DNA of 64,000 bases from Minisyncoccota bacterium (GTDB lineage: Bacteria > Patescibacteriota > Minisyncoccia > Phycocordibacterales > PALSA-1337), in assembly GCA_017991475.1 (NCBI GenBank), contig JAGOQK010000003.1:848-64847 (forward strand), in the 5' to 3' direction. Below, one piece after another: positions 28,140-45,297 of this stretch. The position numbers and the translations under genes are program-made. Each line of letters begins with the position of its first letter. Position 1 is the first letter of the stretch. The notes under the pieces were generated by a model, which saw only the letters and a list, made by a program, of their open reading frames with translations, did no database searches and was not told the origin of the DNA.

Positions 28140-28181
28140 ATAGATAAACAAAATGACACACTGCGCAGTGTGTCATTTTGT

Positions 28182-28442
28182 TTATCTGATATCTCCTATT
28201 TTACGAATAGATTGCTGTGAATTCGCCTCAATGAGAATAGCGTGTTTCTTGATAAAGATTTGAGACTTCTGCATTGCAGTAAGACCTTCGAGTACTGCAG
28301 TATCTGAGTTGAAATTGACCCTCTCTATCGGAATATCAAAACCTGCGTGTTTACGAATAGCATCACAAACTGACATGCGAACAACGACTTCTTGCGCATG
28401 TTTACCCTGAACTCGCTTGAAAAATTCGGATATATTAAGCAT
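28182..28442 (-). CDS. Small DUF721/DciA-like protein downstream of dnaN
   Basis: 86 aa, conserved position after dnaN; weak sequence-level support. Confidence 0.4.
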   Translation of the reverse strand: MLNISEFFKRVQGKHAQEVVVRMSVCDAIRKHAGFDIPIERVNFNSDTAVLEGLTAMQKSQIFIKKHAILIEANSQQSIRKIGDIR

Positions 28443-29549
28443 TTACCTATTCATCGGCATCACGAGGTAGAGAAATGTTTGATCTCCTGAAACTGGCTTG
28501 ATAACAACAGGACGATTGAGACCGTTGAGCTGAAGGGATACACTGTCTGCATCAATCGATTGGAATCCATCGATAAGATATCGATAATTGAAATTAATCT
28601 CCATCTTATCACCTGTTAGAGCTGCATCCACGAGTGTTTGGTTCTCTCCAATATCGCTATTTTTAGTCTGTATTTCAAACATTTTTCCTTTTGGATCGAT
28701 GGTGAGATGAACTTGATTGAACTTATCAGAGAAAATGTTTGATATTTTCAAGGAATTGAGAATGTCTTGTTTGAGTGCAACTACTTCCGTTGTGAATGTT
28801 TTAGGAATAATCTGTCTATAATCAGGAAAAACTCCATCTATTACGCGTGATACGATATACACACCATCATGCTCAAATGAAATAAGATTTTTGTTTGCCG
28901 TAACAGTTACCGAACCATTCATGCTTTGAAGGATTCTAATGATATCTTGGGTATTCTTGAATGGAATCAGAGTATCAACAACTTTTGATCCTCCGTCGCT
29001 TTTAACTTTCTTCTCAGCAAGACGAAATGAGTCCGTTGCTGCAAATGTGAGGTATTCCCCATCCTTATATACATAAATGCTTGAAAGCTCTGGTTTAACG
29101 CTCGATATTGAAGCACTATATGCCACAGCGCTCAATCCTTGAACAAACACTTCTGGTGATATTGAATACTCTTGACCATCTGAAACCTTCGGTATTGGGG
29201 GAAAATCCTCAGCAGGAAGGGTTTTTATTACTCCTTTGGACTTATTGGTCTTTATATGGGCATTACCAGATATAACCTCAATTGATATAACCTGATTTTG
29301 ATCATTAGCCTGAGATATAAATGAAGAAAGAGTATGTGCAGGTACTGCAATAGTACCTATTCCATCTGATTTTACTGGAACAGCAACCTCTACACCCACA
29401 TCGAGATTTGTGGCTTTGAATAGTGCAGTATTCTTATCAACTTCAATAAGAATACATGAGAGTACAGGTAATGTCTGGTGCTTTCCTGCTACCCTCTCTA
29501 TGAGTTGGATCGTTTCTCTCAGTTTTTTGAATCCTATGTCTATCTTCAT
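28443..29549 (-). CDS. dnaN: DNA polymerase III beta sliding clamp
   Basis: 368 aa three-domain clamp; N-terminus MKIDIGFKKLRETIQLIERVAGKHQTLPVLSCILIE; located next to dnaA. Confidence 0.9.
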   Translation of the reverse strand: MKIDIGFKKLRETIQLIERVAGKHQTLPVLSCILIEVDKNTALFKATNLDVGVEVAVPVKSDGIGTIAVPAHTLSSFISQANDQNQVISIEVISGNAHIKTNKSKGVIKTLPAEDFPPIPKVSDGQEYSISPEVFVQGLSAVAYSASISSVKPELSSIYVYKDGEYLTFAATDSFRLAEKKVKSDGGSKVVDTLIPFKNTQDIIRILQSMNGSVTVTANKNLISFEHDGVYIVSRVIDGVFPDYRQIIPKTFTTEVVALKQDILNSLKISNIFSDKFNQVHLTIDPKGKMFEIQTKNSDIGENQTLVDAALTGDKMEINFNYRYLIDGFQSIDADSVSLQLNGLNRPVVIKPVSGDQTFLYLVMPMNR

Positions 29550-29776
29550 AGTAGTTTTTAATTTAATTTATCACAGTATGTTATTAGTCCTGTGGGTATG
29601 TGAATAAAGTTATTTAATGGCTCTAAATATGGATACTATAGGAATTATTTATTACACAGCATGTTGAAGAATTTTTTCTCTATATCCCTTTGAATAACTT
29701 CTGTGTATTACTCACCTATTTACCCACACACTTTTCCTATCCTATATACAACCTATTCACATACTTTTCCCCAGTT
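29550..29776. other. Candidate oriC: AT-rich dnaN-dnaA intergenic region with several near-consensus DnaA boxes
   Basis: TGTGGGTAT (29591), TGTGAATAA (29599), TTACCCACA (29719) and TATTCACAT (about 29755) are each within 1-2 mismatches of TTATCCACA; region is AT-rich and sits between dnaN and dnaA. Confidence 0.4.
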
Positions 29777-31123
29777 TTATAACATCGTACGAACCTGGGT
29801 AATTTCTTGGGAAAGCAACTGATCAGTCTTCATCTCTTCACGCATCTTTTCATATGAGTGAATAACAGTAGTGTGATCTCTTCCTCCAAGCTTTTCTCCA
29901 ATTGAGGGGAATGATATGCCAAAATCCTCTCTCAATATATACATAACCACCTGGCGTGGTCTCACCACCTCCTTGCGTCTCGTTTTGTTGTAGATACTAT
30001 CCTCGTCGATGTTGTAGAATTCCGATACAATCTTCACTACATCCTTCACAGACATCATTTTCTTCGGTTTTACGTTGTTTTTGAGTATATTTTTGATTTC
30101 ATTGATACTCAATTCCCTGTTTTTTAGTTGAGTTTGGCATGCAATCACGTTGATAATACCCTCTATTTCGCGGATATTATCCTCAATAGATGATGCTATG
30201 TGGTCGATAACCTCATCAGAGAGAGTGATATTGTGTGGTGCACACTTGCTACGTACGATCATGGTACGAGATTCCTGGTCGGGCTCAGGTATGTCTATGA
30301 TCATTCCTGCATTGAATCTACCCTTGAGGCGATCTTCAAGTCCAGGAATTACATTTGGGTGTTTATCTGACGAGAATACGAGCTGACGAGCGGAATCATA
30401 GAATGTATTGAAAAAGTGGAAGAGTTCTTCTTGGAACTTCTCTTTACCCGCGAAGAATTGTACATCGTCCATGATGATAACATCATATTTTCTGTACTTA
30501 TCTTTGAATAGCTGCACCTTTGCTTCTTGAATAGCGGCAAAAAGCTCAGAACCGAATCTTTCTGAGGTCAGGTAAAACACCTTTTTATCTGGAAATAGCT
30601 TCTTGATCTGGTTCCCTACAGCTTGGATCATGTGTGTCTTACCGCGACCCGTCTGTCCATATATGAACAATGGGTTGTATGACTGCCCAGGAGCCTTCAC
30701 AACACTCTGAGAGGCTGCGTGAGCGACTTCGTTGAAGGGTCCAACCACAAGAGACTCAAATGTATATCGTGGATTGAGGTTATCCTCCTTGTTGATATAG
30801 AAATCTTGTAGGGGCATGGCTAGTGTAGGCATGTTTAGAGCATCCTTTTTGGCTTGATGACCTCCCTTTCCCTCTTCTTTTATGATCACATACTCGAGGG
30901 CACGGACACGCTCGTTCATTTGGCGCAAAATACGCAAGATTGAGTTGTGAAACTTCTTTTGGAGCCATTCATGGGTAAATGAGTTTGGAACTCCGAGGTA
31001 GACTACCCCCTCATCTTCACGGAGTATCTTGATATCTTTGAACCAGGTCGAGAAGTTTGCTTGAGAGACGGCAGTCTCTATCTCTATGAGCGCAGTTTGC
31101 CACATTTTCGTAAAGTCATTCAT
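29777..31123 (-). CDS. dnaA: Chromosomal replication initiator DnaA
   Basis: AAA+ motifs (GQTGRGKTHMIQAVGN, IIMDDVQF), C-terminal DNA-binding domain (YHNITLSDEV..., GGRDHTTVIHSYEKM). Confidence 0.95.
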   Translation of the reverse strand: MNDFTKMWQTALIEIETAVSQANFSTWFKDIKILREDEGVVYLGVPNSFTHEWLQKKFHNSILRILRQMNERVRALEYVIIKEEGKGGHQAKKDALNMPTLAMPLQDFYINKEDNLNPRYTFESLVVGPFNEVAHAASQSVVKAPGQSYNPLFIYGQTGRGKTHMIQAVGNQIKKLFPDKKVFYLTSERFGSELFAAIQEAKVQLFKDKYRKYDVIIMDDVQFFAGKEKFQEELFHFFNTFYDSARQLVFSSDKHPNVIPGLEDRLKGRFNAGMIIDIPEPDQESRTMIVRSKCAPHNITLSDEVIDHIASSIEDNIREIEGIINVIACQTQLKNRELSINEIKNILKNNVKPKKMMSVKDVVKIVSEFYNIDEDSIYNKTRRKEVVRPRQVVMYILREDFGISFPSIGEKLGGRDHTTVIHSYEKMREEMKTDQLLSQEITQVRTML

Positions 31124-31521: not shown

Positions 31522-31857
31522 ATGCTTTCTCGTTCTCAGAGAATCTCTGTTGAACAATTCAACTCCATCATGGAAAAAGGAAGGGTCTCCCACTCTTCCC
31601 TTTTTCTCATACGAGCAGTCTCAGGAAGAGACGACATTCGTATTGCTGCAGTGACACCCCAGAAAGTATTCAAAACCGCCGTTCTCCGCAATAGAGTGCG
31701 TCGCAGAATGTATGAAGCTATTCGATTTATAGCGATGAATATAAAACCCGGCACACAGGTCATCGTTTTTGCCAAGGCGGCAGCATCTGATAAGAAGCCG
31801 ATTGAGCTCGGGGCTGACATGAAAAATCTCTTTGTGAAAGCGGGTATTTTGGTGTAG
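31522..31857 (+). CDS. rnpA: RNase P protein component
   Basis: 111 aa basic protein directly after rpmH; FLIRAV...RNRVRRRMYEA motif. Confidence 0.85.
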   Translation: MLSRSQRISVEQFNSIMEKGRVSHSSLFLIRAVSGRDDIRIAAVTPQKVFKTAVLRNRVRRRMYEAIRFIAMNIKPGTQVIVFAKAAASDKKPIELGADMKNLFVKAGILV

Positions 31858-31858
31858 T

Positions 31859-32596
31859 ATGAGCTTTATGTACAATGAACTTATTTTTCGCCCCCTTTAT
31901 AACGGCCTTGTGGGTATCATGGACCTCGTGCCCTGGATCGATGTGGGCATCGCAGTTATCATATTTACGGTGATAGTTAAGCTCATACTCTACCCTCTTT
32001 CAAAATCCTCCCTTCTTACTCAAGTGAAAATGAAGGAGGTTGAGCCTGATGCCGCGAAGATTCGTGCTCAATATAGCTCTGATAAGCAGACCCAGGCACT
32101 CAAGATTATGGAGCTCTACAAGTCGCGAGGAGTCAAGCCTTTTGCGGGAATATTACTCGTGCTCATACAACTCCCTATCCTTTTTGCGATCATCTCCGTT
32201 TTCTATAAGATCATTCCAGAGATTCGTCCAGAATATCTCTATAGCTTCGTCTCCATTCCTGTGGTTAAGACACACTTCCTTGGTCTCATAGATCTCACAC
32301 AAAAGAGTCTTATATTGTCGTTGATTACCGCAGGAATCCAGTATTTTCAACTCAAGTATTCACTCGCTTCGCGCCCTACCGCTCCTTCAGATGCAAGTGA
32401 TACTGCAAGCCAGATATCGAACTCCATGAACAAGCAGATGAAATATTTGCTCCCTATTCTCGCCTTCGCGTCGACATATTGGCTCATCCCTGCCCAGTTC
32501 CCTCAGGCAGCAGCTATCATCGCGGTGTACTGGTCAGTAAGCACTCTGTTTACTCTCGGACAAGAGCTTTATATTCGCAAGAAACACATCAAGTAA
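31859..32596 (+). CDS. yidC: YidC/Oxa1-family membrane protein insertase (short form)
   Basis: 245 aa, 5 TM; conserved ...MELYKSRGVKPFAGILLVLIQLPILFAI... region; canonical position after rnpA. Confidence 0.85.
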   Translation: MSFMYNELIFRPLYNGLVGIMDLVPWIDVGIAVIIFTVIVKLILYPLSKSSLLTQVKMKEVEPDAAKIRAQYSSDKQTQALKIMELYKSRGVKPFAGILLVLIQLPILFAIISVFYKIIPEIRPEYLYSFVSIPVVKTHFLGLIDLTQKSLILSLITAGIQYFQLKYSLASRPTAPSDASDTASQISNSMNKQMKYLLPILAFASTYWLIPAQFPQAAAIIAVYWSVSTLFTLGQELYIRKKHIK

Positions 32597-32632: not shown

Positions 32633-33958
32633 CTAATTACTTGAAATCAAATCCAGAGACCATAACGATAAGTCATTCTTGTTCATGAAGAACAGAAAGT
32701 CGTCTTTTTGATCGAGTCCGAGGTTGAAGGCGTCAATGATGCGATTTGAAGTATCTATGATGGAAGATAGGAGTTTGATCTCTCCTGTCACACCATTGAT
32801 CTGCCATATCTTGTCGACCGTAGAAACAGTTCCCGCATACCAATCATCAGGATACACTCCATCTACCGGCTGTGCGGGCGTCGCACAGTAGACCATCTCC
32901 TTGTAGAAATTACCCCAAACGCACTTATCTGCAAGTGTCCTCACGATAGCATCTATCCCCTTTTTGTCAGCGACTGTATATACGCTGGTGAGCACATTCT
33001 TGTTACTGCCCGTGGTGGAGACGATGACACGCTTAGCATCAGAACTTACGCGCGTGCTTATACCTGCGAGTGGCCCGAGTATTTTGTTCCAGACGCCAGT
33101 CTTTGCATTGACGAAATAGAGGTATCCACCCTCAGTGGCAGTCCCCCTGGTAGTGAGAGCTATTGTATTCTCCTCTGGCCACTCGGCATTGAGTTGAGTG
33201 AGGGGTGTACTGAATATCTGAGTCACTGATTTACCGTCGAATGTAGAAACATACCCCGTACCCATCCCGTTCTCATTTACAAGCATGAAAAGTTTATCTT
33301 TCTTTGGCGATGCCGCGTAGGTGATGATGTTTTCAGGAAGATTCTTGCCCTTGAGCTCATATGGGGTGATTGTTTGACCATCGGCCCCTACACCGAGGCT
33401 TTGCGGAGGGGTGCTGCTTGCTGAGGTGCTCGTGGCGACTTTGGGAAGTATGCGAGCCTTGATATCTGCATAAACCGAGCTTATCGAGGTTTCCGCTTCG
33501 TCGAGGCTCGAGGCTATGAATGCGCTCGCATCCTTGTTCCACACACTCTGATATATCCTCGGTACGACGGTGTTCGATAGTGTCGTGACAGCGAGAGTGT
33601 CTCCCTTGGTTTCGTAGATATTGCCACGCCCACGATCCACCCAGCGGATGACTGTGGTACTAGCGGTCGTACTTGCAGCATATCCACCGACGGGGGTGGC
33701 GCTTAGGAGGCGAAGTGCAGGTATCTTGGCTGGAGTTGTGGTATCGGTAGTTGTTGAAGTCACAGGAGTAGTTCCACCACCGGCATTCTGCTGACCCCCA
33801 CCAGTTGGCGGTCTACCAAAAGGCTGAAATCCTCCCTGCTGGTCACCCGAATTCGACCCCTGCCCTGTCGTATCAGCCGGCATGCGCATGAAGAAATACC
33901 AATACGCCGCGCCAGCGATTATCAGAAGTATGAGGAGTATGGGGAGGATTTTTTTCAT
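32633..33958 (-). CDS. Secreted or anchored hypothetical protein (N-terminal TM, Thr/Gly-rich linker, large C-terminal domain)
   Basis: Last gene of the minus-strand block that contains the VirB4/VirB6-like genes. Confidence 0.45.
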   Translation of the reverse strand: MKKILPILLILLIIAGAAYWYFFMRMPADTTGQGSNSGDQQGGFQPFGRPPTGGGQQNAGGGTTPVTSTTTDTTTPAKIPALRLLSATPVGGYAASTTASTTVIRWVDRGRGNIYETKGDTLAVTTLSNTVVPRIYQSVWNKDASAFIASSLDEAETSISSVYADIKARILPKVATSTSASSTPPQSLGVGADGQTITPYELKGKNLPENIITYAASPKKDKLFMLVNENGMGTGYVSTFDGKSVTQIFSTPLTQLNAEWPEENTIALTTRGTATEGGYLYFVNAKTGVWNKILGPLAGISTRVSSDAKRVIVSTTGSNKNVLTSVYTVADKKGIDAIVRTLADKCVWGNFYKEMVYCATPAQPVDGVYPDDWYAGTVSTVDKIWQINGVTGEIKLLSSIIDTSNRIIDAFNLGLDQKDDFLFFMNKNDLSLWSLDLISSN

Positions 33959-33960
33959 AC

Positions 33961-35394
33961 TTAAAGAGTTAAACTTCCTGAGGGGGTGTCATACACGTTG
34001 GGAATAGGCTGAATTATTTTATCAGTACCATCTCCTTTGCCACCAAAAGCTTTTATTATTTCGTAGGCTTGCTCTTTGAACTTTGCTCGTGAATCAGGAT
34101 CCTTGATCGTTTTGTTTGCTTCAACTCTATTTATTTCCTCCTGTATATCAGATATTGCCCGGTTTGCGCTTTCTTGATTTACATCACGAGCAATACCTTT
34201 CCCGACGACAGAAGCAACGGCGGTGCCGGCAATATATCCTACACCCGCCCCAACTCCACCTCCAGTTCCCGCCCCAACAATAACAGCCCCACTCGCTATC
34301 GTGGCTTGCAGGGTCTCGATGGTGGCTATGCCATAAGGATTCCACGAAGTCGCATGTCCAATTGTTGAATAAATTTTAGACATTGACTTTGAATATGCAG
34401 CAAAATCCTGTAGTTCAGCTATAGATTGCGTCTGGCCATTTTCCTGCAATAGCCTCGTATATTTGGCGAGATGCTCATCGATTTTTTGTGCGCATTCAGC
34501 GGGCGACATCTTTGATTGGCCGCCGACTACATTGCCACAATCCTGCATTGCGATATTCATCATACCGACCCCTGTGTTCAACTCGATAGTTCCAGTAAGT
34601 TCCAATTCTTGGTTTTTATTATCAGTGATTTGAACACACAAATCCTCCTCCTCCGAGGTCAAATCAGTATCTGAACATCGATCCAAAATCTGCGCTTCAG
34701 ATGATACGCCAAGTATACCCTCGGCTTCTGAAATGAGAATAGCCCGTTCACTCCTCAAGGATTTAATAGATTCACCGAGTGCATTATTTGCGCGCCTCAG
34801 ATTGGTTACCCTATCTTTCAATGTTGCCATATCGCTCGCGAGCGTATCTGCGGCAGTCTTGGATAATTGACTGAAAAAACTAACTGTCGCACCCTTCTCA
34901 TATTTAATATCAAGCGGCTTTACAAGCGTCGAAGGGATATCAACAAGACGAGGATCTATGGTTCTCAGGATCAAATACGAACAGAGCACCAACAAAAGTC
35001 CCTGGAGTGCTTGGAAAATCATCTTTTTACCTTCATTTTTTCCCAGGAATGAGTCAGTGGTTACATACTTGAATCCTCCGGCGACAATAACGAGTACTGC
35101 GGCGACTGCAGAGAGGGCGATGATAAGGTTGAAGATGTAGCGCACATAGTCACCAAAATTCACCTTCTCTACCAGCGTGTTTTCTGCACATTTTTGAGTT
35201 CCGTCATTGAGACAAGGCAGGGGCTCTAGAAGCGTATAGGTTGCAACAGGATTGTCTTGAGGGTTGCTTGAAGTATTTGCGGCAGTGTCAGCATGAGTGA
35301 TCGAGGGGGTGACGAGCATGCCGACAGCGATGAAGATTGTAAAGACGGATCCTGCGATGGTTAATAATATGTTTTTGTTCATAGATGTATTCAT
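33961..35394 (-). CDS. VirB2/TrbC-like (signal peptide + two-TM hairpin) protein fused to a long coiled-coil/Gly-zipper C-terminal region
   Basis: Signal peptide, then TM pair (YIFNLIIALSAVAAVLVIVAGGF ... MIFQALQGLLLVLCSYLILRTI) as in T4SS pilins, then about 330 extra residues including GAGTGGGVGAGVGYIAGTAVASVVG. Confidence 0.4.
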   Translation of the reverse strand: MNTSMNKNILLTIAGSVFTIFIAVGMLVTPSITHADTAANTSSNPQDNPVATYTLLEPLPCLNDGTQKCAENTLVEKVNFGDYVRYIFNLIIALSAVAAVLVIVAGGFKYVTTDSFLGKNEGKKMIFQALQGLLLVLCSYLILRTIDPRLVDIPSTLVKPLDIKYEKGATVSFFSQLSKTAADTLASDMATLKDRVTNLRRANNALGESIKSLRSERAILISEAEGILGVSSEAQILDRCSDTDLTSEEEDLCVQITDNKNQELELTGTIELNTGVGMMNIAMQDCGNVVGGQSKMSPAECAQKIDEHLAKYTRLLQENGQTQSIAELQDFAAYSKSMSKIYSTIGHATSWNPYGIATIETLQATIASGAVIVGAGTGGGVGAGVGYIAGTAVASVVGKGIARDVNQESANRAISDIQEEINRVEANKTIKDPDSRAKFKEQAYEIIKAFGGKGDGTDKIIQPIPNVYDTPSGSLTL

Positions 35395-35401
35395 GGCTAT
35401 A

Positions 35402-36463
35402 TTAGAATGTTACTTCATTCTCTGTTGCTGTATCACCGCTGAATGATGCTGAAAATCCCCCGCTCGCACCTTGTAGAATCTTGTCAGTGTTTCTGATATC
35501 GAGGCGTATGTTGGATGTACCTGCAGATCCCTCGGGTGCGCGTAATACTACTGACTGACTTGATGAAAGCTCGGTACGCTTCACGCTGTTGATGAGCCAT
35601 GTCAGCGCGAGATTTCCGATACCATCTGCTGGTTTATTGAAGCCAAATGGTACCGCGAGCACAGAGGTCTCCTTTTCAGAACCAATGCGCACCGTATTTT
35701 TTACTGCTTTGTTAAAGAAAGTGCCATAGAGCGGGTCGGTAACATAGAAGCCTATTGAAGGACTTGTTGCAGCTATGGATATGCTCCCTTGGCCCTGTGC
35801 TGCACTATCGCGCGCAGCTACAGACACAGTCACATCGTAGGGTCGTGGGACGATATCTCCAGCGAGATAGATGGATTGTTTACCGTATCCTGACTGGTTT
35901 TGGAGCACTGTACTCCCTTTCTTCCACGTGTATACGAGTGTTTTCGGATCGTACTCTGTGCCACTCGCTGTGGCGAGATGTGGAACAGCGATTATTTTGA
36001 CTATATTCTGATAACGCGGCGATATCTTGCCCAAGAAAAGTGGATGAACATAACCATCAGATTCGACGAGCATGTCTATAGAGCTGGCTGTTATAGTGAT
36101 CGAATCAGACATACTCGTGCCGATAGTTGGACGAGCAGTTATCGAAACTACAAGCGACTTTCCGAGCTCAGGCGCAATGACTTTAACCGTTTTCAAACCG
36201 ACACCGCTCTGGACAGCTTTACCATTTATAGACCACGATACGGTAGACGAATCGATATCGATTGAATAACTCTTGAGGGTGATAGTTACTTCCTGTCCTG
36301 GGTATGGGTTGGGCGAAGATGTTTCGATGACGAGCCCGCTTATACCGGCTGGTATCGCTTGGGCGAATAGGTATGAGGTATGAGGTGTGAGGCATGAAGC
36401 AAAAAACACAAAACAAAATAGCAGTACTACTATGGATGAGAAATGAGAAAAACGAGAGTTCAT
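35402..36463 (-). CDS. Secreted hypothetical protein (signal peptide; beta-rich, Ig-like repeats likely)
   Basis: Start placed at MNSRFSHFSSIVVLLFCFVFFAS signal peptide; within the T4SS-like block. Confidence 0.5.
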   Translation of the reverse strand: MNSRFSHFSSIVVLLFCFVFFASCLTPHTSYLFAQAIPAGISGLVIETSSPNPYPGQEVTITLKSYSIDIDSSTVSWSINGKAVQSGVGLKTVKVIAPELGKSLVVSITARPTIGTSMSDSITITASSIDMLVESDGYVHPLFLGKISPRYQNIVKIIAVPHLATASGTEYDPKTLVYTWKKGSTVLQNQSGYGKQSIYLAGDIVPRPYDVTVSVAARDSAAQGQGSISIAATSPSIGFYVTDPLYGTFFNKAVKNTVRIGSEKETSVLAVPFGFNKPADGIGNLALTWLINSVKRTELSSSQSVVLRAPEGSAGTSNIRLDIRNTDKILQGASGGFSASFSGDTATENEVTF

Positions 36464-36518
36464 TGACTCTATTTTAGCAATATTATGAGCTATATGCGAT
36501 GAAAAATGTGTATAGGTA

Positions 36519-36953
36519 TCAGTTTTTGAGGCCCCCATTTGGAGGTCGAGTACCGCCCTGGTTCAAAGGTTGCTGTTTTTGGGCTGCTCTGCGCACACCT
36601 CCACTATTGAGGTGTGGTCCGCTAGATAGTGATCCCACAGAGATACCAGTTTTATCCTCGATACGAGTAGTGACCACTATGATAATCATAGCCAAAGTGA
36701 TGGTGGGAAGTGCTTGGATGGCAGGAATGATTTCAGCGATAGCGGAGACACCGCTTGCCGCCAGCCTTTTGCCATTCATGAATCCGAATCCAGACTTGAA
36801 CAAGTATATATTAATGAGGACCCAATAGGTTGGCCCCACAATGATGCCAACAATAGGTATGAGGGTCAGAAGGTCAGCAATGATAGCGGAACCTATAAGC
36901 AGAGCTGCTGCTTTGTTGCTGATACGATTTTTCTTGCCAGATTCTTGTTCCAT
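36519..36953 (-). CDS. Small polytopic membrane protein (3 TM) with Gly-rich C-terminus
   Basis: ORF in the T4SS-like block, directly downstream of hairpin D. Confidence 0.45.
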   Translation of the reverse strand: MEQESGKKNRISNKAAALLIGSAIIADLLTLIPIVGIIVGPTYWVLINIYLFKSGFGFMNGKRLAASGVSAIAEIIPAIQALPTITLAMIIIVVTTRIEDKTGISVGSLSSGPHLNSGGVRRAAQKQQPLNQGGTRPPNGGLKN

Positions 36954-36971
36954 AAGTTCATTATAGCAGAA

Positions 36972-37093
36972 GAGCCCTCATGTACGCGGTACGCATGTTT
37001 TGTGCATGTCATGTTTAGGATTGAACACTAGAAATAATGTTACCTACTAAGCATGACATGCACAAAACATGCGTACCGCGTACATGAGGGCTC
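36972..37093. repeat. Long perfect inverted repeat (42-bp arms, 38-nt loop), hairpin family member D, inside the T4SS-like gene block between the VirB4-like gene and the next gene
   Basis: GAGCCCTCATGTACGCGGTACGCATGTTTTGTGCATGTCATG ... CATGACATGCACAAAACATGCGTACCGCGTACATGAGGGCTC; loop TTTAGGATTGAACACTAGAAATAATGTTACCTACTAAG. Confidence 0.9.
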
Positions 37094-37104
37094 GTACCTC
37101 AATA

Positions 37105-38916
37105 TTACCCAGCCTGTTCCAGATCCTTCTTCGCCTGTTGAATACTCAAAACTTGAGCAGGATTGGTCGTGATGATCTGATCCTCGGTATATGATGCAAC
37201 GATCTTGATGGCGACGTGCTTGAGACCCACGAAGAATATACCCTCCCCCACATCTGATTCGAGCAAGAGGTACTTCTCTTCATCAGTCAGGTTAAATGTT
37301 TTCTGGATATGGTCGATGACTGTAGGAGACTGTTTGAGGAGTATTTGGATCGATGAGTTGGTTACGATAGGCAATCCATATGGTGAATTCAAGAAATCAT
37401 CCACGTCCTGGGTGATGGTAGCAAGTCCAAGGAAGTACTTGCGGCCGCGCTTGGCAAGGCTGAACAAGAATGAAGCTGTATCTTCAGACTTCATCATCCA
37501 CCACGCCTCGTCGATGACGAGCAGGCGCTTCTTGAGATTCTTGCGGATAGCATTCCAGATATAGTGAGTGACGATATACATAGCCACTGGCTTGAGTTCA
37601 TCTTCCATATCACGGAGCGAGAACACGGCAAATTTCTTGTTGATGTCGATGTTGGATGGCCTGTTGATGAAGCCTGACCATGTTCCTTTGGTGTACTTTG
37701 AGAGCCTCTGCACAAGCGATTCGCCGCCCTCCATTCCTGCAAGCACCAGCTCGAAGTCGGATAGGAGCGGTGGCTCAACGGTGCGGAAATCAGCCTCGGG
37801 CGTGATGTCTTTCAAGGCATAGGTCTCAGTGATGGCGCGATCGATGATAGCGTCTTCTTCTTGTGTGAGGCCTCCGAGCATGATGCGGAATAGTCCGACG
37901 AGGTTGATGATGTTCGAACGGAGTACATCAGCGCCAGATTCGTCCTCGCGTGGTATCGGGAGATCAAATGGGTTGATGTGGTGCTCAGAGTTGAGTGAGA
38001 TATTGAAGTACTTCCCTCCCGTAGCTTCTGCCATGTATTCGTACTCCTTCTCTGGATCGATGACGATAACATCCACATCGAACATGAGTGTTCGGAGGAT
38101 CTCAAGCTTAGTGTTGTAGGACTTTCCAGCACCGGCCACTGCGAATGTCACTGAGTTGTAGTTTTCAAGCGAGTAGCGATCAAAGAGAACAAGTGATGAG
38201 TTGTGACGATTGATACCGTAGAGGATACCCTTGTCTGAGGTGAGATCAAATGAAACGAATGGGAAAAGTGACGAGAGTGGCGAAGAGTTGAGCTTGGAGT
38301 GCACTGCGAGCTGGTCATCCGCGATAGGAATAACAGATTTGAATCCCTGCTCCTGCTGGAAGAGAGCTGGCTTCACATAGATGAGTTTGGATTCGAGGAT
38401 AGACTTGATCTCTGATTCGAGCTTATCGAGCTCGCCTTCGTTATCAGCGAATAGGGTGATATAAACACCGACGTCGAAGAGATGTTCCTGTGCCTGCATG
38501 AGTTGGTCGCGGAGCTGCTCGAGATCTTGGTATGCGGTATCGAGCGCTGGATCACGGACAAGGCCTTTCTCTTCCCTGTGTGAAATCTGACTTTGAACCT
38601 CAGCAACCTTCTTCTGGAAATGCCTCAAAATTTTTGCAGTATCGACGGGGTGTATGAATATCGAAATATTGAATATTTTGTCGAGATTGATGATCGGTGC
38701 AAACCAGCTCTCGTCAAGGAAGCGAGGGTATGAGATCACGAAAAGTGTGCGACCGACTTTCTCACCAAGATTGATCTCCTTTGGGCTTACCTTGAGTGCA
38801 GACGGCGAAATGACATCCTTGAGTTCTAGGACACCAGCCTGATAGATCTCTTCTGGCAGGATAGAGACAATAGGAGATGATTCTTTTTTGCCGAATAGTT
38901 TGTTGAGGAATGACAT
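37105..38916 (-). CDS. virB4: VirB4/TraC/CagE-family type IV secretion ATPase (Gram-positive-type, about 600 aa)
   Basis: Walker A SVTFAVAGAGKSYNTK, VIDPEKEYEYMAEATGGKYFNI, Walker B LLVIDEAWWMM, C-terminal LATITQDVDDF. Confidence 0.8.
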   Translation of the reverse strand: MSFLNKLFGKKESSPIVSILPEEIYQAGVLELKDVISPSALKVSPKEINLGEKVGRTLFVISYPRFLDESWFAPIINLDKIFNISIFIHPVDTAKILRHFQKKVAEVQSQISHREEKGLVRDPALDTAYQDLEQLRDQLMQAQEHLFDVGVYITLFADNEGELDKLESEIKSILESKLIYVKPALFQQEQGFKSVIPIADDQLAVHSKLNSSPLSSLFPFVSFDLTSDKGILYGINRHNSSLVLFDRYSLENYNSVTFAVAGAGKSYNTKLEILRTLMFDVDVIVIDPEKEYEYMAEATGGKYFNISLNSEHHINPFDLPIPREDESGADVLRSNIINLVGLFRIMLGGLTQEEDAIIDRAITETYALKDITPEADFRTVEPPLLSDFELVLAGMEGGESLVQRLSKYTKGTWSGFINRPSNIDINKKFAVFSLRDMEDELKPVAMYIVTHYIWNAIRKNLKKRLLVIDEAWWMMKSEDTASFLFSLAKRGRKYFLGLATITQDVDDFLNSPYGLPIVTNSSIQILLKQSPTVIDHIQKTFNLTDEEKYLLLESDVGEGIFFVGLKHVAIKIVASYTEDQIITTNPAQVLSIQQAKKDLEQAG

Positions 38917-38920
38917 AGTC

Positions 38921-39562
38921 TTATGTTATCTGTATCGGCTTCTCCGTTTCGCCTGGGTTAAACAGTTTATAGAACAATTCTACCACCTCTTCTGTCCCAA
39001 GCTCCGCTGCGCGGACACCACAACGTACGAGCCCTTGCTCTACCACGGCGACGCGCTGTTCGAGCTGGCTGCGGTATTCTTGGAACTTCGCATCAGTACT
39101 TTCCGCAGTCGCCTTACCTGCTCCCTTCCCCGGGAACATGCCTGCCAGAGGATTCTTGCCCCCACTCACGATCGGTGGATCGTACGGTATGACGACGAAG
39201 AAACTCTTGGACATGATGTTTGTGCTCTCGACGAAGGTTTTGATAAATTCGATGTACTCACGAACTTGGATCTTCATGAGCTCGGTGATCTGTTCCTTGT
39301 AGCGATCTTCGAGGAGGGCTATATACGGTCTGATGTCGAGTTTTTTTGATTGAACGAATATCTGTATAGAAAAATCGAGCGAGTTCACAAAATTCTGGAA
39401 TTGCATGAGGATAGAGCTCTGTTCATCCTGTGATTTGAGGGCGAAGTTGAGAGATGAGGCGAGCACGACCGCGCGCATGCCGCCATTTTTGAGAATAACG
39501 ACCCCGTCCCGAATCTCTTGAATCGGTATGAATCCTTGGGTTGTCGATTGTTTAGGAGCCAT
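38921..39562 (-). CDS. Hypothetical protein resembling the N-terminal domain of Gram-positive VirB4-like ATPases; a possible split VirB4 N-domain or accessory protein
   Basis: FIPIQEIRDGVVILKNGGMRAVVLASSLNFALKSQDEQSSILMQFQNFVNSL resembles N-termini of Tn916 Orf16 / PrgJ-type proteins as recalled; separated from virB4 by only 4 nt. Confidence 0.4.
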   Translation of the reverse strand: MAPKQSTTQGFIPIQEIRDGVVILKNGGMRAVVLASSLNFALKSQDEQSSILMQFQNFVNSLDFSIQIFVQSKKLDIRPYIALLEDRYKEQITELMKIQVREYIEFIKTFVESTNIMSKSFFVVIPYDPPIVSGGKNPLAGMFPGKGAGKATAESTDAKFQEYRSQLEQRVAVVEQGLVRCGVRAAELGTEEVVELFYKLFNPGETEKPIQIT

Positions 39563-39993
39563 TACTTTTGGTTTTTATTTGAATACATGCTCTCCTTGAT
39601 ATCGAGGCTCCAACTCAAGTCCTTGAGTTTGCTATCGGAAATTTTAGGAACCATAATCGAGGCGTAATTTTTGATATCAGCGACAGGAGACTTCTCGGTT
39701 TGTGCGACCTTGTCCTCCTTCTTCCAGATATAGAGCTTGCCCCCGAGCCAGTATTTGAATGCAGCTTCGACAATAGCGACGAATGGCTTGTTATTGATCC
39801 TGTAGAATGCGAGTGCCGCAGATATTGCCATGACGATAATGATAGGAACGATCGCCAACGTGAAGCTGCCCAAGAGCACATACAGCAAAAATGATAAGCC
39901 TCCCCCACCAGCGAGATATATGAACTGTTTCAGGGTGAGAGGACCAAAGATTTTGTCCTCAACCTCGATGAATTGGGGAACTTGATAGCGCAT
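39562..39993 (-). CDS. PrgI/VirB3-like small membrane protein
   Basis: 143 aa, N-terminal IEVEDKIFGPLTLKQFIYLAGGGG then two TM helices; sits immediately upstream of the VirB4-like genes as PrgI-family proteins do. Confidence 0.55.
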   Translation of the reverse strand: MRYQVPQFIEVEDKIFGPLTLKQFIYLAGGGGLSFLLYVLLGSFTLAIVPIIIVMAISAALAFYRINNKPFVAIVEAAFKYWLGGKLYIWKKEDKVAQTEKSPVADIKNYASIMVPKISDSKLKDLSWSLDIKESMYSNKNQK

Positions 39994-40049
39994 TACAGTA
40001 TATTATAACCCAATTACGCACATTTATATATGTGCAAATAGAATTCGTT

Positions 40050-40781
40050 TTAACTTACCATTTCCCTATAGGGGTCAGGTCCAGCTTTCTTGGGTTGTGG
40101 AGGTGGTGTCTTCGGGGTTTCTGGGGCTGTAGGTGTTTGTATGGGGCTTTGAGTAGTTCTTTGGGGAGCTGATGGTCGGGTCGGCACTGACTGTACAGGC
40201 GTCTCCAAGGGCGTTTCCTCGACTACAGGCAAATTGCTTGGAGCAGGCGCCTCATGATGAGGTTTGGGTGCGAGTTGCCCGACTGAATTCTGGAGAAGAT
40301 GATCAACGAGCGGCTCAGTGTGATTGTCTGAAGACGATTTTGAGTAGGCACCCTTCGGAACAGGTGGATTCTCTAGGTGTTCAAGTATCTGACTTCTATC
40401 TGCTGCACTTACCTTGGATTCAGTTGCAACCCTCTCTTTCTCAATACTGAAACCACCGACCTTTTCAATGTTTGCAACTGAGGCAGCATTCTCTTCTACT
40501 GTAGTTTGCGCCTGGATTTGTTCCTTGAGCGTCTGGAATACAGCCGCATTGACCTCGGCGACGATCTTCTCCGCGAGTCCCCGGTCGATCTCGAGGCGTT
40601 GCATGATGTGCTTGATGAAGTCTCCCGACTCGCTGACGCCATTGAGTATGTCGCGTATCTCAGCATCAAGTTCCCCTACTTGGTCGATGAGGAGGCCGAA
40701 TTTCGCGCCGATAGCTTCCGAACGGTCGTAGAGTTCGGCTGAGTCAGCGAGCTTTTTGAATTCTGGGGGTGTTTGGTGCAT
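40050..40781 (-). CDS. Hypothetical protein with Pro/Thr-rich C-terminal tail
   Basis: ORF only; in the T4SS-like block. Confidence 0.45.
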   Translation of the reverse strand: MHQTPPEFKKLADSAELYDRSEAIGAKFGLLIDQVGELDAEIRDILNGVSESGDFIKHIMQRLEIDRGLAEKIVAEVNAAVFQTLKEQIQAQTTVEENAASVANIEKVGGFSIEKERVATESKVSAADRSQILEHLENPPVPKGAYSKSSSDNHTEPLVDHLLQNSVGQLAPKPHHEAPAPSNLPVVEETPLETPVQSVPTRPSAPQRTTQSPIQTPTAPETPKTPPPQPKKAGPDPYREMVS

Positions 40782-40795
40782 GTGAGTAATAATAA

Positions 40796-42712
40796 TTAAG
40801 CAGGGTTATATGTTACTCCGTTTAAGGTTATACTTGCCTTGAGCCAATCACCATGGTTCTTAGGTTTACTCATCCAACCGAAGGCGCTGTGCTCACTGCC
40901 ACCAGAAGTCGTTTTCCAATCGAGAATACTTCTTGCAATAGCATCTTTTGTTTCCTTAGATACTTTACTGTCACCAATTTTCTTAAGACGATCGATGGAA
41001 AGATGTTCAAGTAGCCCTGGGTTTGCCAGCAATGATTCATCTTCGACAATACTGTCAATATCCATATCCTTTACCATCTGCTTGACGACCTCCTTGTCGC
41101 CCGTAGTCACTGCGCTTGAGAACGCATCCTTACGCGCGGTCTTGAGTGTGCTTATATCCTCAGGTTTGAAATCTTCCGATTTCTCAATAGCTTCAATGTC
41201 TGATTTTTGGAGATGCTTCATAACCTGAGGATTTTTCAAGACATCCTTCCCAAGAGCAAGCTTCTCGTCTTTGCTCATAAGTTTAATAATAGCCTTGTAT
41301 TCATCAGATGATTTAGAGTCGGAAGCGATAAGATTTTTGATTTGAGTTACCCTATCCATCTGTGTTTGCTTCTTTGCAACATCCTTCAGCTCCTTTCTGG
41401 TCTCATCATAACTTCGTGGACCCCCAAACTTACTCTTTGCAACTTGTCCTATTGTTGCAGAGCGAATATCTCTACCGAGCAGACTGTTGCCGATGCGAGT
41501 ATTGGAGAGGTATTTATCTGTTTTTGATGCCGCCATTCCAAAAGTTTTGCCACCTGCCCAACCGCTAACACCCTTCCAGATTGCTCCCGCCCCTACACCC
41601 TCTGCCCACTTTGGCATCATTGCTCCCACACTGATAGCCGCAAGAAGTGGCGCGTTGAGCATGATAATAACAATCGAGGCATTGATACCGAGGATCATGT
41701 AGTTCGCCCACCAGTACTCGCCTGCCGACTGATTCGTGGCAAATCCGGCTTGGAACAAGTTGCTTGAGGTCAGGATGCTCAACGCGAAATACATGAGCAA
41801 CAAATACACTGGCATGAAGAGGAGCTGACTCTTGTAGGTATCAGTCCATTTATTGGCGTATGTTTTTAGGTCAGGCACTGCGAATGACGCGAACCATATC
41901 GGGGAGAATCCAAGCAAGAGAAGCAACACAACGAAGCGTACGATGAAGGCAAGCGCTGCGAGGAAGAAGCTTGCTGCAGCGGTGAGCATGACGACGATGC
42001 CAAATACACCACCAAGGATAATCTGTGTGGATGCGTGAAAAGTTCCTGGTGTTCCCCCTGCCCCCGACGGATTGAGGGCCGCAGTTTTGGCATCATAGAA
42101 ATTGCTGATCTTGAGCGATTTCATGAATATGTCGGAGAGTCCGCCGTCTGCAAATCGTGTTTCGAGATTCGCACCATTCCCCACAAGCTGATCATAGTTG
42201 AGGTTACTTGCAGGCGCAATAGTGTTGTAGAGCTGCATCGATACTACATTTGAGACGTCGATACCGAGTCCTGCAGCGAAGAAACTGAAGTTTATGAGCA
42301 CTCCAGCGACTACGACCGTCTTGATGAGGTTTCCTGCGCTCGGTCCGGGGACGCCGATCGGTGCCAAGATCATCTTGAGTGCTGCGAAGACGAGGGTGAA
42401 TATGAGGAACATGCCGGATATGTCTCGTATCGATTTCCAAACCGCGTATATCGCTGGAGTACCTTCAAGGAACTCTTTGATGTTGAGTGTCAGGTTTATC
42501 GACATATTGAGCAGCGATCCGGCAAGCGCGAGGATCCAGGCGGATATGGTCAGAAGGTTGTTGACGATTTCGGCGAAGAATCCAGTGACGAAGTCATGGA
42601 AGGTATATCCGAAGAGTGGTGCGTCTGCTGCCTGCGCCACATGCCCAAATCCTCCCACGAGTATCGTGATGAGGATGAGAGTTGCTGTTATGTGAGGCAA
42701 GTAGCGTTTCAT
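40796..42712 (-). CDS. VirB6/TrbL-like polytopic inner-membrane protein with C-terminal charged cytoplasmic extension
   Basis: Signal peptide plus about 8 TM helices across the first 400 aa, then a long K/D/E-rich tail; size and topology match T4SS VirB6-like channel proteins; adjacent to PrgI and VirB4. Confidence 0.55.
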   Translation of the reverse strand: MKRYLPHITATLILITILVGGFGHVAQAADAPLFGYTFHDFVTGFFAEIVNNLLTISAWILALAGSLLNMSINLTLNIKEFLEGTPAIYAVWKSIRDISGMFLIFTLVFAALKMILAPIGVPGPSAGNLIKTVVVAGVLINFSFFAAGLGIDVSNVVSMQLYNTIAPASNLNYDQLVGNGANLETRFADGGLSDIFMKSLKISNFYDAKTAALNPSGAGGTPGTFHASTQIILGGVFGIVVMLTAAASFFLAALAFIVRFVVLLLLLGFSPIWFASFAVPDLKTYANKWTDTYKSQLLFMPVYLLLMYFALSILTSSNLFQAGFATNQSAGEYWWANYMILGINASIVIIMLNAPLLAAISVGAMMPKWAEGVGAGAIWKGVSGWAGGKTFGMAASKTDKYLSNTRIGNSLLGRDIRSATIGQVAKSKFGGPRSYDETRKELKDVAKKQTQMDRVTQIKNLIASDSKSSDEYKAIIKLMSKDEKLALGKDVLKNPQVMKHLQKSDIEAIEKSEDFKPEDISTLKTARKDAFSSAVTTGDKEVVKQMVKDMDIDSIVEDESLLANPGLLEHLSIDRLKKIGDSKVSKETKDAIARSILDWKTTSGGSEHSAFGWMSKPKNHGDWLKASITLNGVTYNPA

Positions 42713-42733
42713 GAATCTATAGGGGTTGAATGA

Positions 42734-44344: not shown

Positions 44345-44349
44345 AGTTT

Positions 44350-45273: not shown

Positions 45274-45297
45274 ATCTGTGGACAGGCAGCATTATTT

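Follow-up and report, generated by a model that had tools for sequence, protein, structure and literature searches.

We describe a gene in a chromosomal T4SS of Patescibacteria whose product appears to join a VirB2-type pilin to a folded helical domain of about 310 residues. Sequence comparisons support its assignment as a VirB2-type (T4SS_pilin family) subunit of the Patescibacteria T4SS that carries a C-terminal extension. In at least 52 species the extended form is the norm, and a close relative keeps a plain short pilin at the same position of an otherwise identical cluster. On our assessment there is about an even chance that this Paceibacteria protein is a pilin with a built-in, retained domain outside the cell that serves surface display or host contact.

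A pilin family with a long C-terminal extension

The gene codes for a 477-residue protein from an ATG start, and gaps of 7 nt and 2 nt separate it from its neighbours in a co-directional operon (Table 1). The sequence-only reading of this ORF gave no strand; the gene lies on the minus strand. An exact-sequence lookup identified the product as MBP6858549.1, annotated as 'hypothetical protein KBC33_01820' in a Candidatus Pacebacteria/Paceibacterota MAG; the source is a Paceibacteria MAG (Patescibacteria/CPR). The architecture proposed in the sequence-only reading, a pilin-like module followed by a long C-terminal extension, was borne out: the ORF has a predicted signal peptide, a hairpin, and an extension of about 310 aa.

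The protein matches Pfam family PF18895 (T4SS_pilin) over residues 87-144 (profile positions 12-69 of 71) with an E-value of 0.006 and 17.0 bits, which is under the Pfam gathering cut-off of 26.6 bits. Its NCBIfam matches (PdsO, aminotransferase) were rejected as noise. We collected a homologue set of 98 protein clusters with lengths of 333-708 aa. PF18895 is matched by 95 of the 98 at E<=0.01, with a best value of 1.2e-9, and about half of the set carries a precomputed PF18895 call; one member matches TrbC/VirB2 (PF04956). The proposed similarity to VirB2/TrbC-type pilins is therefore found across the family, and it is the family, not the score of this one protein, that supports the pilin assignment from sequence. 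The long architecture is also present in 52 complete genes from species-representative genomes. Its recurrence in these genes and in the 98 clusters argues that it is no assembly artefact. We considered a type IV pilin with a class III signal peptide and rejected it: the protein has no G↓FxxxE motif and carries a predicted Sec-type leader and a two-helix hairpin instead.

Table 1. Features of the extended pilin gene and its T4SS cluster. Positions are those of the window, the whole 64-kb stretch of DNA that was analysed.
Feature	Position	Strand	Basis or remark
Extended VirB2-like T4SS pilin, complete CDS	33961..35394	minus	ORF listing, exact-sequence lookup, homologues
Predicted Sec signal peptide, residues 1-35	35290..35394	minus	hydropathy heuristic
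Mature N-terminal motif YTLLEPLPC and Cys61...Cys69 loop, residues 50-79	35158..35247	minus	alignment, AF2
Two-helix transmembrane hairpin (PF18895 core), residues 80-146	34957..35157	minus	hydropathy, AF2, Pfam
Pro-rich tail DPRLVxIPxTLVxPLxIxY, residues 147-165	34900..34956	minus	alignment, AF2
Predicted C-terminal helical ectodomain, residues 166-477	33964..34899	minus	orphan fold; ~310 aa
Gly/Ala-rich uncharged zipper segment, residues 371-402	34189..34284	minus	ladder statistics, pLDDT, hydropathy
Conserved downstream gene, 441 aa, N-terminal anchor and G/Q/T-rich linker	32633..33958	minus	sequence, synteny
Two conserved genes between VirB4 and pilin	35402..36953	minus	synteny
378-aa secreted beta-rich protein	35402-36538	minus	synteny
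144-aa two-TM protein	36519-36953	minus	synteny
VirB4-type ATPase, 603 aa	37105..38916	minus	Pfam P-loop_TraG 8.7e-25, AAA_10, DUF87
TrsD-like protein resembling VirB4 N-terminus, 213 aa	38921..39562	minus	NCBIfam VirB4_plasma 3.5e-10, TrsD 2.3e-5, both below cut-off
PrgI / VirB3-like membrane protein, 143 aa	39562..39993	minus	Pfam PrgI 4.3e-13
Candidate extended VirB6-like platform, 638 aa, polytopic, hydrophilic C-terminal region	40796..42712	minus	position and topology only

The conserved pilin module

A Kyte-Doolittle scan located three hydrophobic stretches, at residues 7-33, 83-113, and 124-144. The first forms the core of the predicted signal peptide and is followed by an AXA-like site (THA↓DT) that our heuristic places at about residue 35. 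Aligned homologues have equivalent small-x-small sites after the hydrophobic core. The other two stretches coincide with the two-TM hairpin that had been proposed from the sequence, and AlphaFold2 (AF2) modelled hairpin helices at residues 80-112 and 116-146 with pLDDT values of 86-95. The loop between them is short and net-basic (4 K, 1 D, 1 E). Upstream, residues 50-79 were modelled as a beta-hairpin with strands at 52-60 and 74-79. Y53, L55-P60, and F80 are invariant in the homologue alignment (A1), and short pilins have the YTLLEP motif too.

The most conserved segment of the protein, with an identity of 0.71, is the Pro-rich tail. Residues D147, P148, R149, L150, V151, I153, P154, T156, and V158 are invariant among the homologues, and AF2 models the tail as coil (pLDDT 58-83). 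Its counterpart in short pilins is their natural C-terminal tail (INPdL...); these proteins terminate 5-12 aa past the equivalent motif. The sequence-only reading assigned the first 140 residues to the pilin. The module itself stands, but its boundary does not: the conserved region extends to about residue 165 and includes both the YTLLEPLPC motif and the Pro-rich tail. Two outcomes had been named as contrary to the pilin reading, a lack of similarity to any pilin and a topology prediction at odds with the hairpin, and neither was found.

Short pilins in the orthologous position

A single-sequence search with the N-terminal module found only three proteins, all apparently truncated. A profile of the module (A5) was more productive and retrieved PF18895 proteins of 124-227 aa with E-values from 2e-49 to 8e-6. 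Genuine short pilins of 124-139 aa are among these matches, and they share the YTLLEP motif, the hairpin, and the INPdL tail with the extended protein. One 187-aa candidate (P0153) was not accepted as a short form because it comes from a long-read assembly contig full of frameshifts. Our search for homologues with and without the extension thus recovered both kinds. In one locus (L005), a 139-aa pilin occupies the slot of the extended gene and the gene order is otherwise identical (TrsD-VirB4-142-333-[pilin]-415, then yidC rnpA, then dnaA dnaN).

The window holds no other pilin-like ORF detectable with the family HMM among all six-frame ORFs, and Pfam searches of every small ORF that has two or more hydrophobic segments revealed no second pilin. 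There is one pilin copy per cluster, without a tandem pilin array.

An oriC-proximal T4SS cluster

The extended pilin gene belongs to the known oriC-proximal, Gram-positive-like chromosomal T4SS of Patescibacteria. Published clusters of this type adjoin dnaA, dnaN, rnpA, and ksgA and contain VirB2-like pilins, and the cluster analysed here agrees with that description (PMC12102498). The genes for VirB4, the TrsD-like protein, and PrgI/VirB3 share an operon with the pilin gene. VirB4 is collinear in 51 of 58 related loci, and orthologues of the TrsD-like protein carry PF26593 (TraC-like). The 638-aa protein has multiple hydrophobic segments but no Pfam or PDB match, and related loci have a gene for a 619-679-aa product at the same position; it may be an extended VirB6. 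The 441-aa gene is the last of the cluster before yidC, is likewise collinear in 51 of 58 loci, and has no family or PDB match. No family match was found for the 144-aa and 378-aa proteins. More broadly, Pfam (E<=1) and PDB sequence searches returned nothing for the neighbours of 441, 378, 144, 243, 638, 536, 307, and 323 aa, and no peptidase family was detectable in the cluster.

Gene order is identical in loci where the pilin has about 25-39% identity to ours. The neighbours are collinear in 40-57 of the 58 species loci, except for the 144-aa protein (29 of 58).

These findings bear on the possibility that the resemblance to pilins arose by chance, in an unrelated secreted or membrane protein with a hydrophobic hairpin that merely mimics them. 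The sub-threshold Pfam score of the individual protein would allow this, as would the tendency of helical hairpins to yield non-specific structural matches. However, nearly the whole family matches PF18895, the N-terminal profile ties the family to cited short PF18895 pilins with E-values of 1e-12 to 1e-21, the gene sits in the slot of a short pilin, and it invariably lies within a VirB4 cluster. The family Pfam, profile, slot, and synteny results effectively refute a chance resemblance, to which we attach almost no probability.

A predicted helical bundle without known relatives

We modelled the extension on its own with AF2 and obtained an intramolecular helical bundle with a pTM of 0.78 and a pLDDT of about 80. 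The sequence-only reading had described this region as a coiled coil. In support of that description, the first long helix (residues 169-225) shows a heptad pattern that is significant (p about 0.01) and has weak matches to the Lpp, GCN4, and Mdv1 coiled coils in a PDB sequence profile search; the model, however, packs it within a folded bundle. The region has a GGKGDGTD motif at residue 451 and contains four cysteines (240, 253, 286, and 301). Cys pairs within this domain are conserved among homologues, and it is probably disulfide-stabilised.

Foldseek against the PDB found no known fold for the extension beyond generic or designed helical bundles. The PDB sequence profile likewise returned only such bundles, without a VirB5, adhesin, or toxin fold, and we found no structural similarity to VirB5, VirB8, or VirB10. 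A VirB5/TraC minor pilin was rejected because neither sequence nor fold resembles the VirB5 three-helix bundle with appendage. The extension is thus predicted to be a confidently folded orphan bundle without a PDB relative.

A profile scan of 1.84 billion representatives matched the extension in only 60, always fused behind the pilin module; it found no C-terminal domain alone or in other fusions. Three short hits (P0104, P0115, and P0118) were discarded: they are fragments, read-throughs, or the result of frameshifts. The extension is present in each of the 52 complete species-representative genes, with products of 326-628 aa. Identity between homologues is 21-31% (about 25%) in this domain versus 68-71% in the hairpin and tail; compared with the hairpin (68%), the domain is by far the faster-evolving part.

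A lineage-specific glycine-rich segment

The glycine-zipper segment noted in the sequence-only reading is present, with GAGTGGGVGAGVGYIAGTAVASVVG at residues 374-398, but it proved to be a feature of a minority of the family. Its small-xxx-small ladder has eight rungs between residues 374 and 402 (G374-x3-G-x3-G-x3-G-x3-G-x3-A-x3-G-x3-A). Eight rungs were reached in about 3% of shuffles of the same 35 residues, so the periodicity is only modestly above what the Gly/Ala-rich composition provides. Only part of the family has the segment, about 25 of 98 homologues and 5 of 52 species-representative genes, and its length is variable. AF2 models it as a disordered loop (pLDDT 43-44) that protrudes from the bundle. 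From these comparisons, the zipper appears to be a lineage-specific hydrophobic add-on of the ectodomain, and the loop may touch a membrane.

Transmembrane glycine zippers such as PF05433 resemble this segment in the eight-rung ladder and in its uncharged stretch of about 30 aa. If the segment were an additional TM helix in the cell's own membrane, the chain would cross that membrane three or four times and its last ~80 residues would be cytoplasmic, or a Gly-zipper channel would form; the protein would then be channel- or holin-like and no pilin. Weak matches of single family members to PF05433 (glycine-zipper 2TM; one homologue, at 1.4e-4), C19orf12-like, and SipB point the same way. The segment differs from transmembrane zippers in several respects, however. 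Its Kyte-Doolittle maximum of 1.45 is under the TM threshold of 1.6 that we applied, the protein has no Pfam glycine-zipper match, and the segment is facultative: about three quarters of homologues lack it, as do 47 of 52 species-representative genes. In the AF2 model the flanking helices pack into one domain, which argues for a loop and makes a single membrane pass unlikely. A true TM segment is unlikely on these grounds, and we regard the multi-pass alternative as very improbable.

A proposed displayed ectodomain and its alternatives

We favour a novel filament subunit over a processed precursor. The protein would be exported by Sec, with removal of a leader of roughly 35 aa, and the hairpin would sit in the membrane with both ends outward and its basic loop in the cytoplasm. 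Like other VirB2 proteins, it would then be handed to the VirB3/VirB4/VirB6-like machine encoded upstream. The helical domain would be retained through the conserved Pro-rich tail and would lie on the extracellular face, coating whatever the hairpins assemble into, be it a short pilus or a wall-spanning stalk. The even number of TM helices after the leader, the conserved Cys pairs, and the modelling of the zipper as a loop all argue for the outside location. Structures of conjugative pili place the inter-helix loop at the lumen, which leaves the termini facing outward (PMC11722321). The low identity of the ectodomain relative to the hairpin and tail points to a surface-exposed role, as does the lack of a separate adhesin in Patescibacteria T4SS clusters (PMC12102498). 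The fast-evolving ectodomain could thus serve surface display or host contact.

Some observations weigh against a displayed domain. Apart from the protein's own sub-threshold Pfam score, the most conserved segment is an unstructured tail at the module junction, which would suit a protease site, and C-terminal trimming of pilins has precedents: TrbC loses 27 aa through the signal-peptidase-like TraF, and TrhA loses 5 aa (PMC11722321). A protease might therefore cut at about residues 147-168 and release a polymerising pilin of ~110-130 aa, leaving a C-terminal domain that acts as an intramolecular chaperone, an assembly inhibitor, or a separate secreted factor. The end of short pilins just past the equivalent motif, and the short pilin in the orthologous slot, fit such a pro-pilin. 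Known trimming, however, removes 4-27 residues and no folded 310-aa domain, and the cluster has no recognisable peptidase to perform it. Short pilins also naturally end in this tail, and cleavage is therefore not needed to explain why it is conserved. Finally, a domain with conserved Cys and a confident fold has been kept across at least 52 species, which argues for a function of its own, though one that it could still exert after cleavage. We consider cleavage unlikely but credible; it would make the domain the largest pilin pro-region known.

The protein might instead be a part of the machine that does not polymerise. The hairpin would then be a membrane anchor or VirB6 dock, and the ectodomain would oligomerise through helix 169-225, for example as a pentamer or trimer, into a fixed stalk or cap through the cell wall and S-layer; it would replace missing VirB5/VirB8/VirB10-like parts, and there would be no pilus. 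VirB2 is needed for substrate transfer even in pilus-less systems (PMC12857230), and homologues of VirB5 and VirB8 mostly escape detection in Patescibacteria (PMC12102498). The heptad periodicity of the helix, with its weak coiled-coil matches, and the single pilin copy per cluster are also compatible with a fixed structure. On the other side, the extension does not structurally resemble any of the parts it would replace, and AF2 packs the long helix intramolecularly. Conservation of the hairpin, N-terminal motif, and tail is as strong as that in true short pilins, suggesting that pilin-specific contacts have been retained. We judge a fixed part rather unlikely.

In a more elaborate form of the displayed-ectodomain reading, a single polypeptide would act as major pilin (VirB2), as tip or adhesin (VirB5/PrgB-like), and as a membrane-inserting element. 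Ectodomains would sheathe a T4SS filament or stalk, and the hydrophobic loops of the Gly-zipper subclade would enter the host membrane and form a passage through which host metabolites are taken up. We regard this combination as speculative and improbable; if it is true, monoderm epibionts would have a T4SS appendage of a new architectural class.

Comparison with known pilins

We compared the extended pilin with the VirB2-like pilins described in other Patescibacteria, for example those of the Southlakia epibionticum ML1 array, whose pilins are essential, and those in the survey of Quinonero-Coronel et al. 2025 (PMC12102498; PMC10633639). They share a leader, a two-helix hairpin, and a basic loop, and their genes likewise adjoin those for VirB4, TrsD, and PrgI, in a cluster near dnaA that is MPF_FATA-like and has no relaxase. 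The extended pilin has the YTLLEP motif and the INPdL/IDPRLV tail in common with short members. In contrast, the mature extended protein would have about 440 aa rather than about 90-110 aa, it adds a folded ~310-aa helical domain without known relatives, and it is encoded by a single gene rather than a Southlakia-type tandem array of divergent short pilins. The papers that we consulted do not appear to discuss the extended form, which they would simply have counted as 'VirB2'.

Conjugative pilins of Gram-negative bacteria (VirB2, TrbC, TraA, and TrhA) and the archaeal Ced/Ted pilins likewise have a leader cleaved by signal peptidase, a hairpin extracted into the filament, and a basic loop lining the lumen. 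Their mature forms have 60-130 aa, with at most 27 C-terminal residues removed, and none carries a large folded C-terminal domain such as this 35-kDa appendage. The host also differs from those of Gram-negative conjugative systems in being monoderm, without an outer-membrane core complex.

The ectodomain can be set beside the VirB5/TraC tip protein, which is helical, secreted, and thought to be distal and target-contacting: it is all-helical too, is predicted to be extracellular, and belongs to a system without a recognisable VirB5. The 'extended VirB6' proteins follow the same theme of a conserved membrane-embedded T4SS core with a large hydrophilic extension (PMC12857230), but they are a different subunit family without homology to the pilin.

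Implications for Patescibacteria

Patescibacteria account for a large part of bacterial diversity and are apparently host-dependent. To our knowledge, theirs is the only T4SS known to be essential for its owner's growth and the only monoderm T4SS with VirB2-like pilins. A filament or stalk built from the extended pilin would differ from known conjugative pili. In a clade that comprises at least 52 species, the only pilin encoded in the cluster has a large, fast-evolving ectodomain with an orphan fold, while the pilin in the same slot of a close relative is a plain 139-aa protein. This comparison of clusters with and without the extension marks a part of the machine that likely faces the host. 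It also provides a concrete target and tests the cargo capacity of the VirB2 scaffold.

Pilin identity of the N-terminal module

The extended pilin is encoded by a single ORF at the coordinates given by the sequence-only reading; it lies on the minus strand, packed tightly between co-directional neighbors. An exact-sequence lookup identified the product as MBP6858549.1 from a Candidatus Pacebacteria/Paceibacterota MAG. Hydropathy analysis also bore out the predicted topology: residues 7-33 form a signal-like N-terminal segment followed by THA|DT, and residues 83-113 and 124-144 are strongly hydrophobic, with a short lysine-rich loop between them.

We compared the protein with known pilin families. 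By itself it scored 17 bits against PF18895 (T4SS_pilin; residues 87-144), below the cut-off of 26.6. A database search returned 98 homologs of 333-708 aa each, all from Patescibacteria, of which 95 matched PF18895 at E<=0.01 and one matched TrbC/VirB2. The pilin-family match is therefore a property of the family, and the individual sequence remains sub-threshold. In the conserved core, approximately residues 50-165, two elements are invariant, a YTLLEPLP motif and a Pro-rich tail (DPRLVxIPxTLVxPL); the core also includes a Cys loop and the hairpin. A profile of this pilin module found short proteins (124-139 aa) that share these motifs and end 5-12 residues past the equivalent INPdL motif; homologs both with and without the extension exist. 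The gene order is unchanged in a related T4SS locus of another genome (L005): TrsD-VirB4-142-333-[139-aa pilin]-415, then yidC rnpA, then dnaA dnaN. The gene spacing there leaves no room for a hidden extension behind the 139-aa pilin. This short pilin in the same gene order is decisive for the pilin identity of the module. We conclude that the gene is the VirB2-type gene of a T4SS cluster, and we are highly confident that its product is a VirB2-like pilin homolog with an added domain. What we say of the protein beyond this identity, we infer.

The surrounding T4SS cluster

Patescibacteria T4SSs are MPF_FATA-like, lack a relaxase, and lie near the replication origin, and their VirB2-like pilins have been detected with PF18895 and PF04956 (PMC12102498). 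The cluster described here has the same arrangement and the same oriC-proximal position. Southlakia epibionticum cannot grow epibiotically without its T4SS and pilin array (PMC10633639), and a review singles out Patescibacteria T4SSs as the sole monoderm T4SSs that may have pili (PMC12857230).

Features of the T4SS cluster and its surroundings
Feature	Position	Strand	Remarks
Whole T4SS operon	32633-46269	-	directly beside origin-region genes
Extended pilin	33961-35394	-	477 aa
Conserved small protein	36519-36953	-	144 aa
VirB4 ATPase	37105-38916	-	603 aa; TraG P-loop, 8.7e-25
TrsD-like protein	38921-39562	-	213 aa, separate gene; resembles VirB4 N-terminus
PrgI/VirB3-like protein	39562-39993	-	
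Polytopic membrane protein	40796-42712	-	638 aa
Secreted protein	42734-44344	-	536 aa; Ser/Gln/Ala-rich
Membrane-anchored protein	45298-46269	-	323 aa
dnaN	28443-29549	-	
dnaA	29777-31123	-	
rnpA	31522-31857	+	
yidC	31859-32596	+	
ksgA	46291-47112		far side of cluster from yidC/dnaA
UvrD/PcrA (UvrD-type) helicase	47112-49247		far side of cluster
LysM + Peptidase_M23 protein	49546-50616	+	just outside cluster

VirB4 function is split over two genes, the TrsD-like gene and then the ATPase gene; the split is kept in all related loci inspected, with orthologs that match PF26593 (TraC-like). The operon also encodes several conserved unknown proteins. The 638-aa protein begins with a signal-like segment, has some 6-7 hydrophobic segments, and ends in a hydrophilic region of about 250 aa rich in Lys and Glu. 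It has no match in Pfam, NCBIfam or PDB, and its topology and synteny make it a candidate 'extended VirB6'. The 144-aa protein, with two hydrophobic segments and a tail rich in Gly, Pro and Asn, has no family match; its gene overlaps the start of the next by 20 nt at its 3' end, and a counterpart of 142-146 aa occupies the same position in all syntenic loci. It may represent an additional small membrane subunit of the T4SS. A long run of Gly (GAGGSSGGGGIPGFGGGGGG) and a C-terminal domain containing Cys mark the 323-aa protein. Neither it nor the 536-aa protein has detectable relatives, and the positions of both are conserved in related loci. The LysM + Peptidase_M23 protein may serve the T4SS as its cell-wall hydrolase, since a published survey associates M23/LysM-containing VirB1 substitutes with virB4 in Paceibacteria (PMC12102498). 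At 28001-30000, over dnaN and the spacer between dnaA and dnaN, GC content drops locally to 0.374 (about 0.47-0.50 elsewhere in the window), perhaps a sign of the AT-rich origin region.

Distribution of long and short forms

Scanning one genome per GTDB species for the DPRLV motif recovered 58 loci, labeled Parcubacteria, Paceibacteria, Taylorbacteria, Nomurabacteria, Minisyncoccia or generically. VirB4 (51 loci), a 378-aa protein (57) and a 441-aa protein (51) are collinear neighbors, and yidC lies on the opposite strand in 49. All 52 complete genes encode proteins of 326-628 aa (median 403), and an uncharged Gly-rich segment is present in five of them and in about a quarter of the 98 protein clusters. 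Thus, the clade normally has the long form, to which a sub-lineage has added the glycine zipper. Neither the 64-kb window nor the regions flanking related loci contained a second pilin-like ORF.

A 187-aa family protein (P0153) was considered as a short pilin and rejected. In its long-read assembly (L006; ENA contig_246751_np1212, locus 10001-11372), the pilin gene, dnaN and a PBP gene are all in pieces, so P0153 is almost certainly a frameshift artifact of a long form. Short forms from such frameshift-prone assemblies should be treated with caution.

Fold and conservation of the extension

AlphaFold2 (AF2) modeling from the 98-sequence alignment gave a mean pLDDT of 80.3 for the full-length protein, and residues 160-477 alone were also modeled confidently (pLDDT 79.9, pTM 0.78). 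In the prediction, the long helices of the extension (169-225, 247-287, 298-318, 322-349, 353-370 and 392-449) form a bundle, the Gly-rich segment is a loop of low confidence, and the final ~28 residues are disordered. Of the coiled coil predicted from sequence, only the first long helix, 169-225, shows significant heptad periodicity (p ~0.01), and in the model this helix is part of the bundle. The claimed glycine zipper does exist as a small-xxx-small ladder of eight rungs at residues 374-398 (GAGTGGGVGAGVGYIAGTAVASVVG). When the same 35 residues were shuffled, ~3% of the trials reached eight rungs, so the ladder exceeds composition only moderately, and its hydropathy maximum of 1.45 falls under the 1.6 that we took to define a membrane segment. 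Because the flanking helices pack confidently into one domain in the model, the segment is predicted to form a loop or hairpin rather than cross the membrane once.

Scanned against 1.84 billion representative proteins, a profile of the extension matched only 60. Nearly all of these matches are in proteins of 350-540 aa and begin near residue 130-200, behind a pilin module; the few short matches were rejected as stand-alone domains, being fragments or frameshift products. The extension is a genuine, conserved domain with an orphan fold. It is probably extracytoplasmic or extracellular, because a leader precedes the two TM helices, and four cysteines conserved within the close family (240, 253, 286 and 301) fit this location. 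Identity among homologs is 21-31% in this ectodomain versus 68-71% in the hairpin and tail.

Proposed mechanism and alternatives

Pilins sit as hairpins in the membrane, are cut by signal peptidase and are pulled out by the VirB4/VirB6 machinery; in their filaments the lumen is lined by the basic loop together with lipid, which leaves the termini on the outside (PMC6362355; PMC11722321). By analogy, the extended pilin would be a membrane hairpin whose leader is cut by signal peptidase before extraction by VirB4/VirB6. With outward-facing termini, the ectodomain would coat the exterior of any structure built from the hairpins. Its fast evolution, and the description of Patescibacteria T4SS clusters without a separate adhesin (PMC12102498), suggest that it acts in host contact or in display on the surface. 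We give this full model, a VirB2-type pilin with an outward ectodomain serving either role, an even chance.

The protein might instead be a pro-pilin that is cut at the conserved junction. Trimming of TrbC and TrhA offers a precedent, but on a much smaller scale, and with no protease detectable in the T4SS cluster we consider this doubtful. A hairpin-anchored stalk or cap that does not polymerize is likewise an unlikely reading. The Gly zipper is very unlikely to be an extra TM or channel element, given its sub-threshold hydropathy, its absence from most complete genes and clusters, and the single packed domain formed by the flanking helices. The idea that the pilin resemblance arose by chance is refuted by the family-wide PF18895 matches, the short proteins reached by the pilin-module profile, the 139-aa pilin of L005 and the collinear VirB4 genes; we regard it as wholly improbable.

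The T4SS of Patescibacteria, its oriC-proximal location and its VirB2-like pilins are already published, and extended members above HMM thresholds would already be tallied as 'VirB2' in one survey (PMC12102498). In the papers that we read on Patescibacteria T4SSs, PMC12102498 and PMC12857230 among them, we saw no pilins with a C-terminal extension mentioned, and the database annotates MBP6858549.1 only as a 'hypothetical protein'. Such an architecture is unusual among VirB2 proteins, and the short ortholog in L005 is a ready natural control for the extended pilin.
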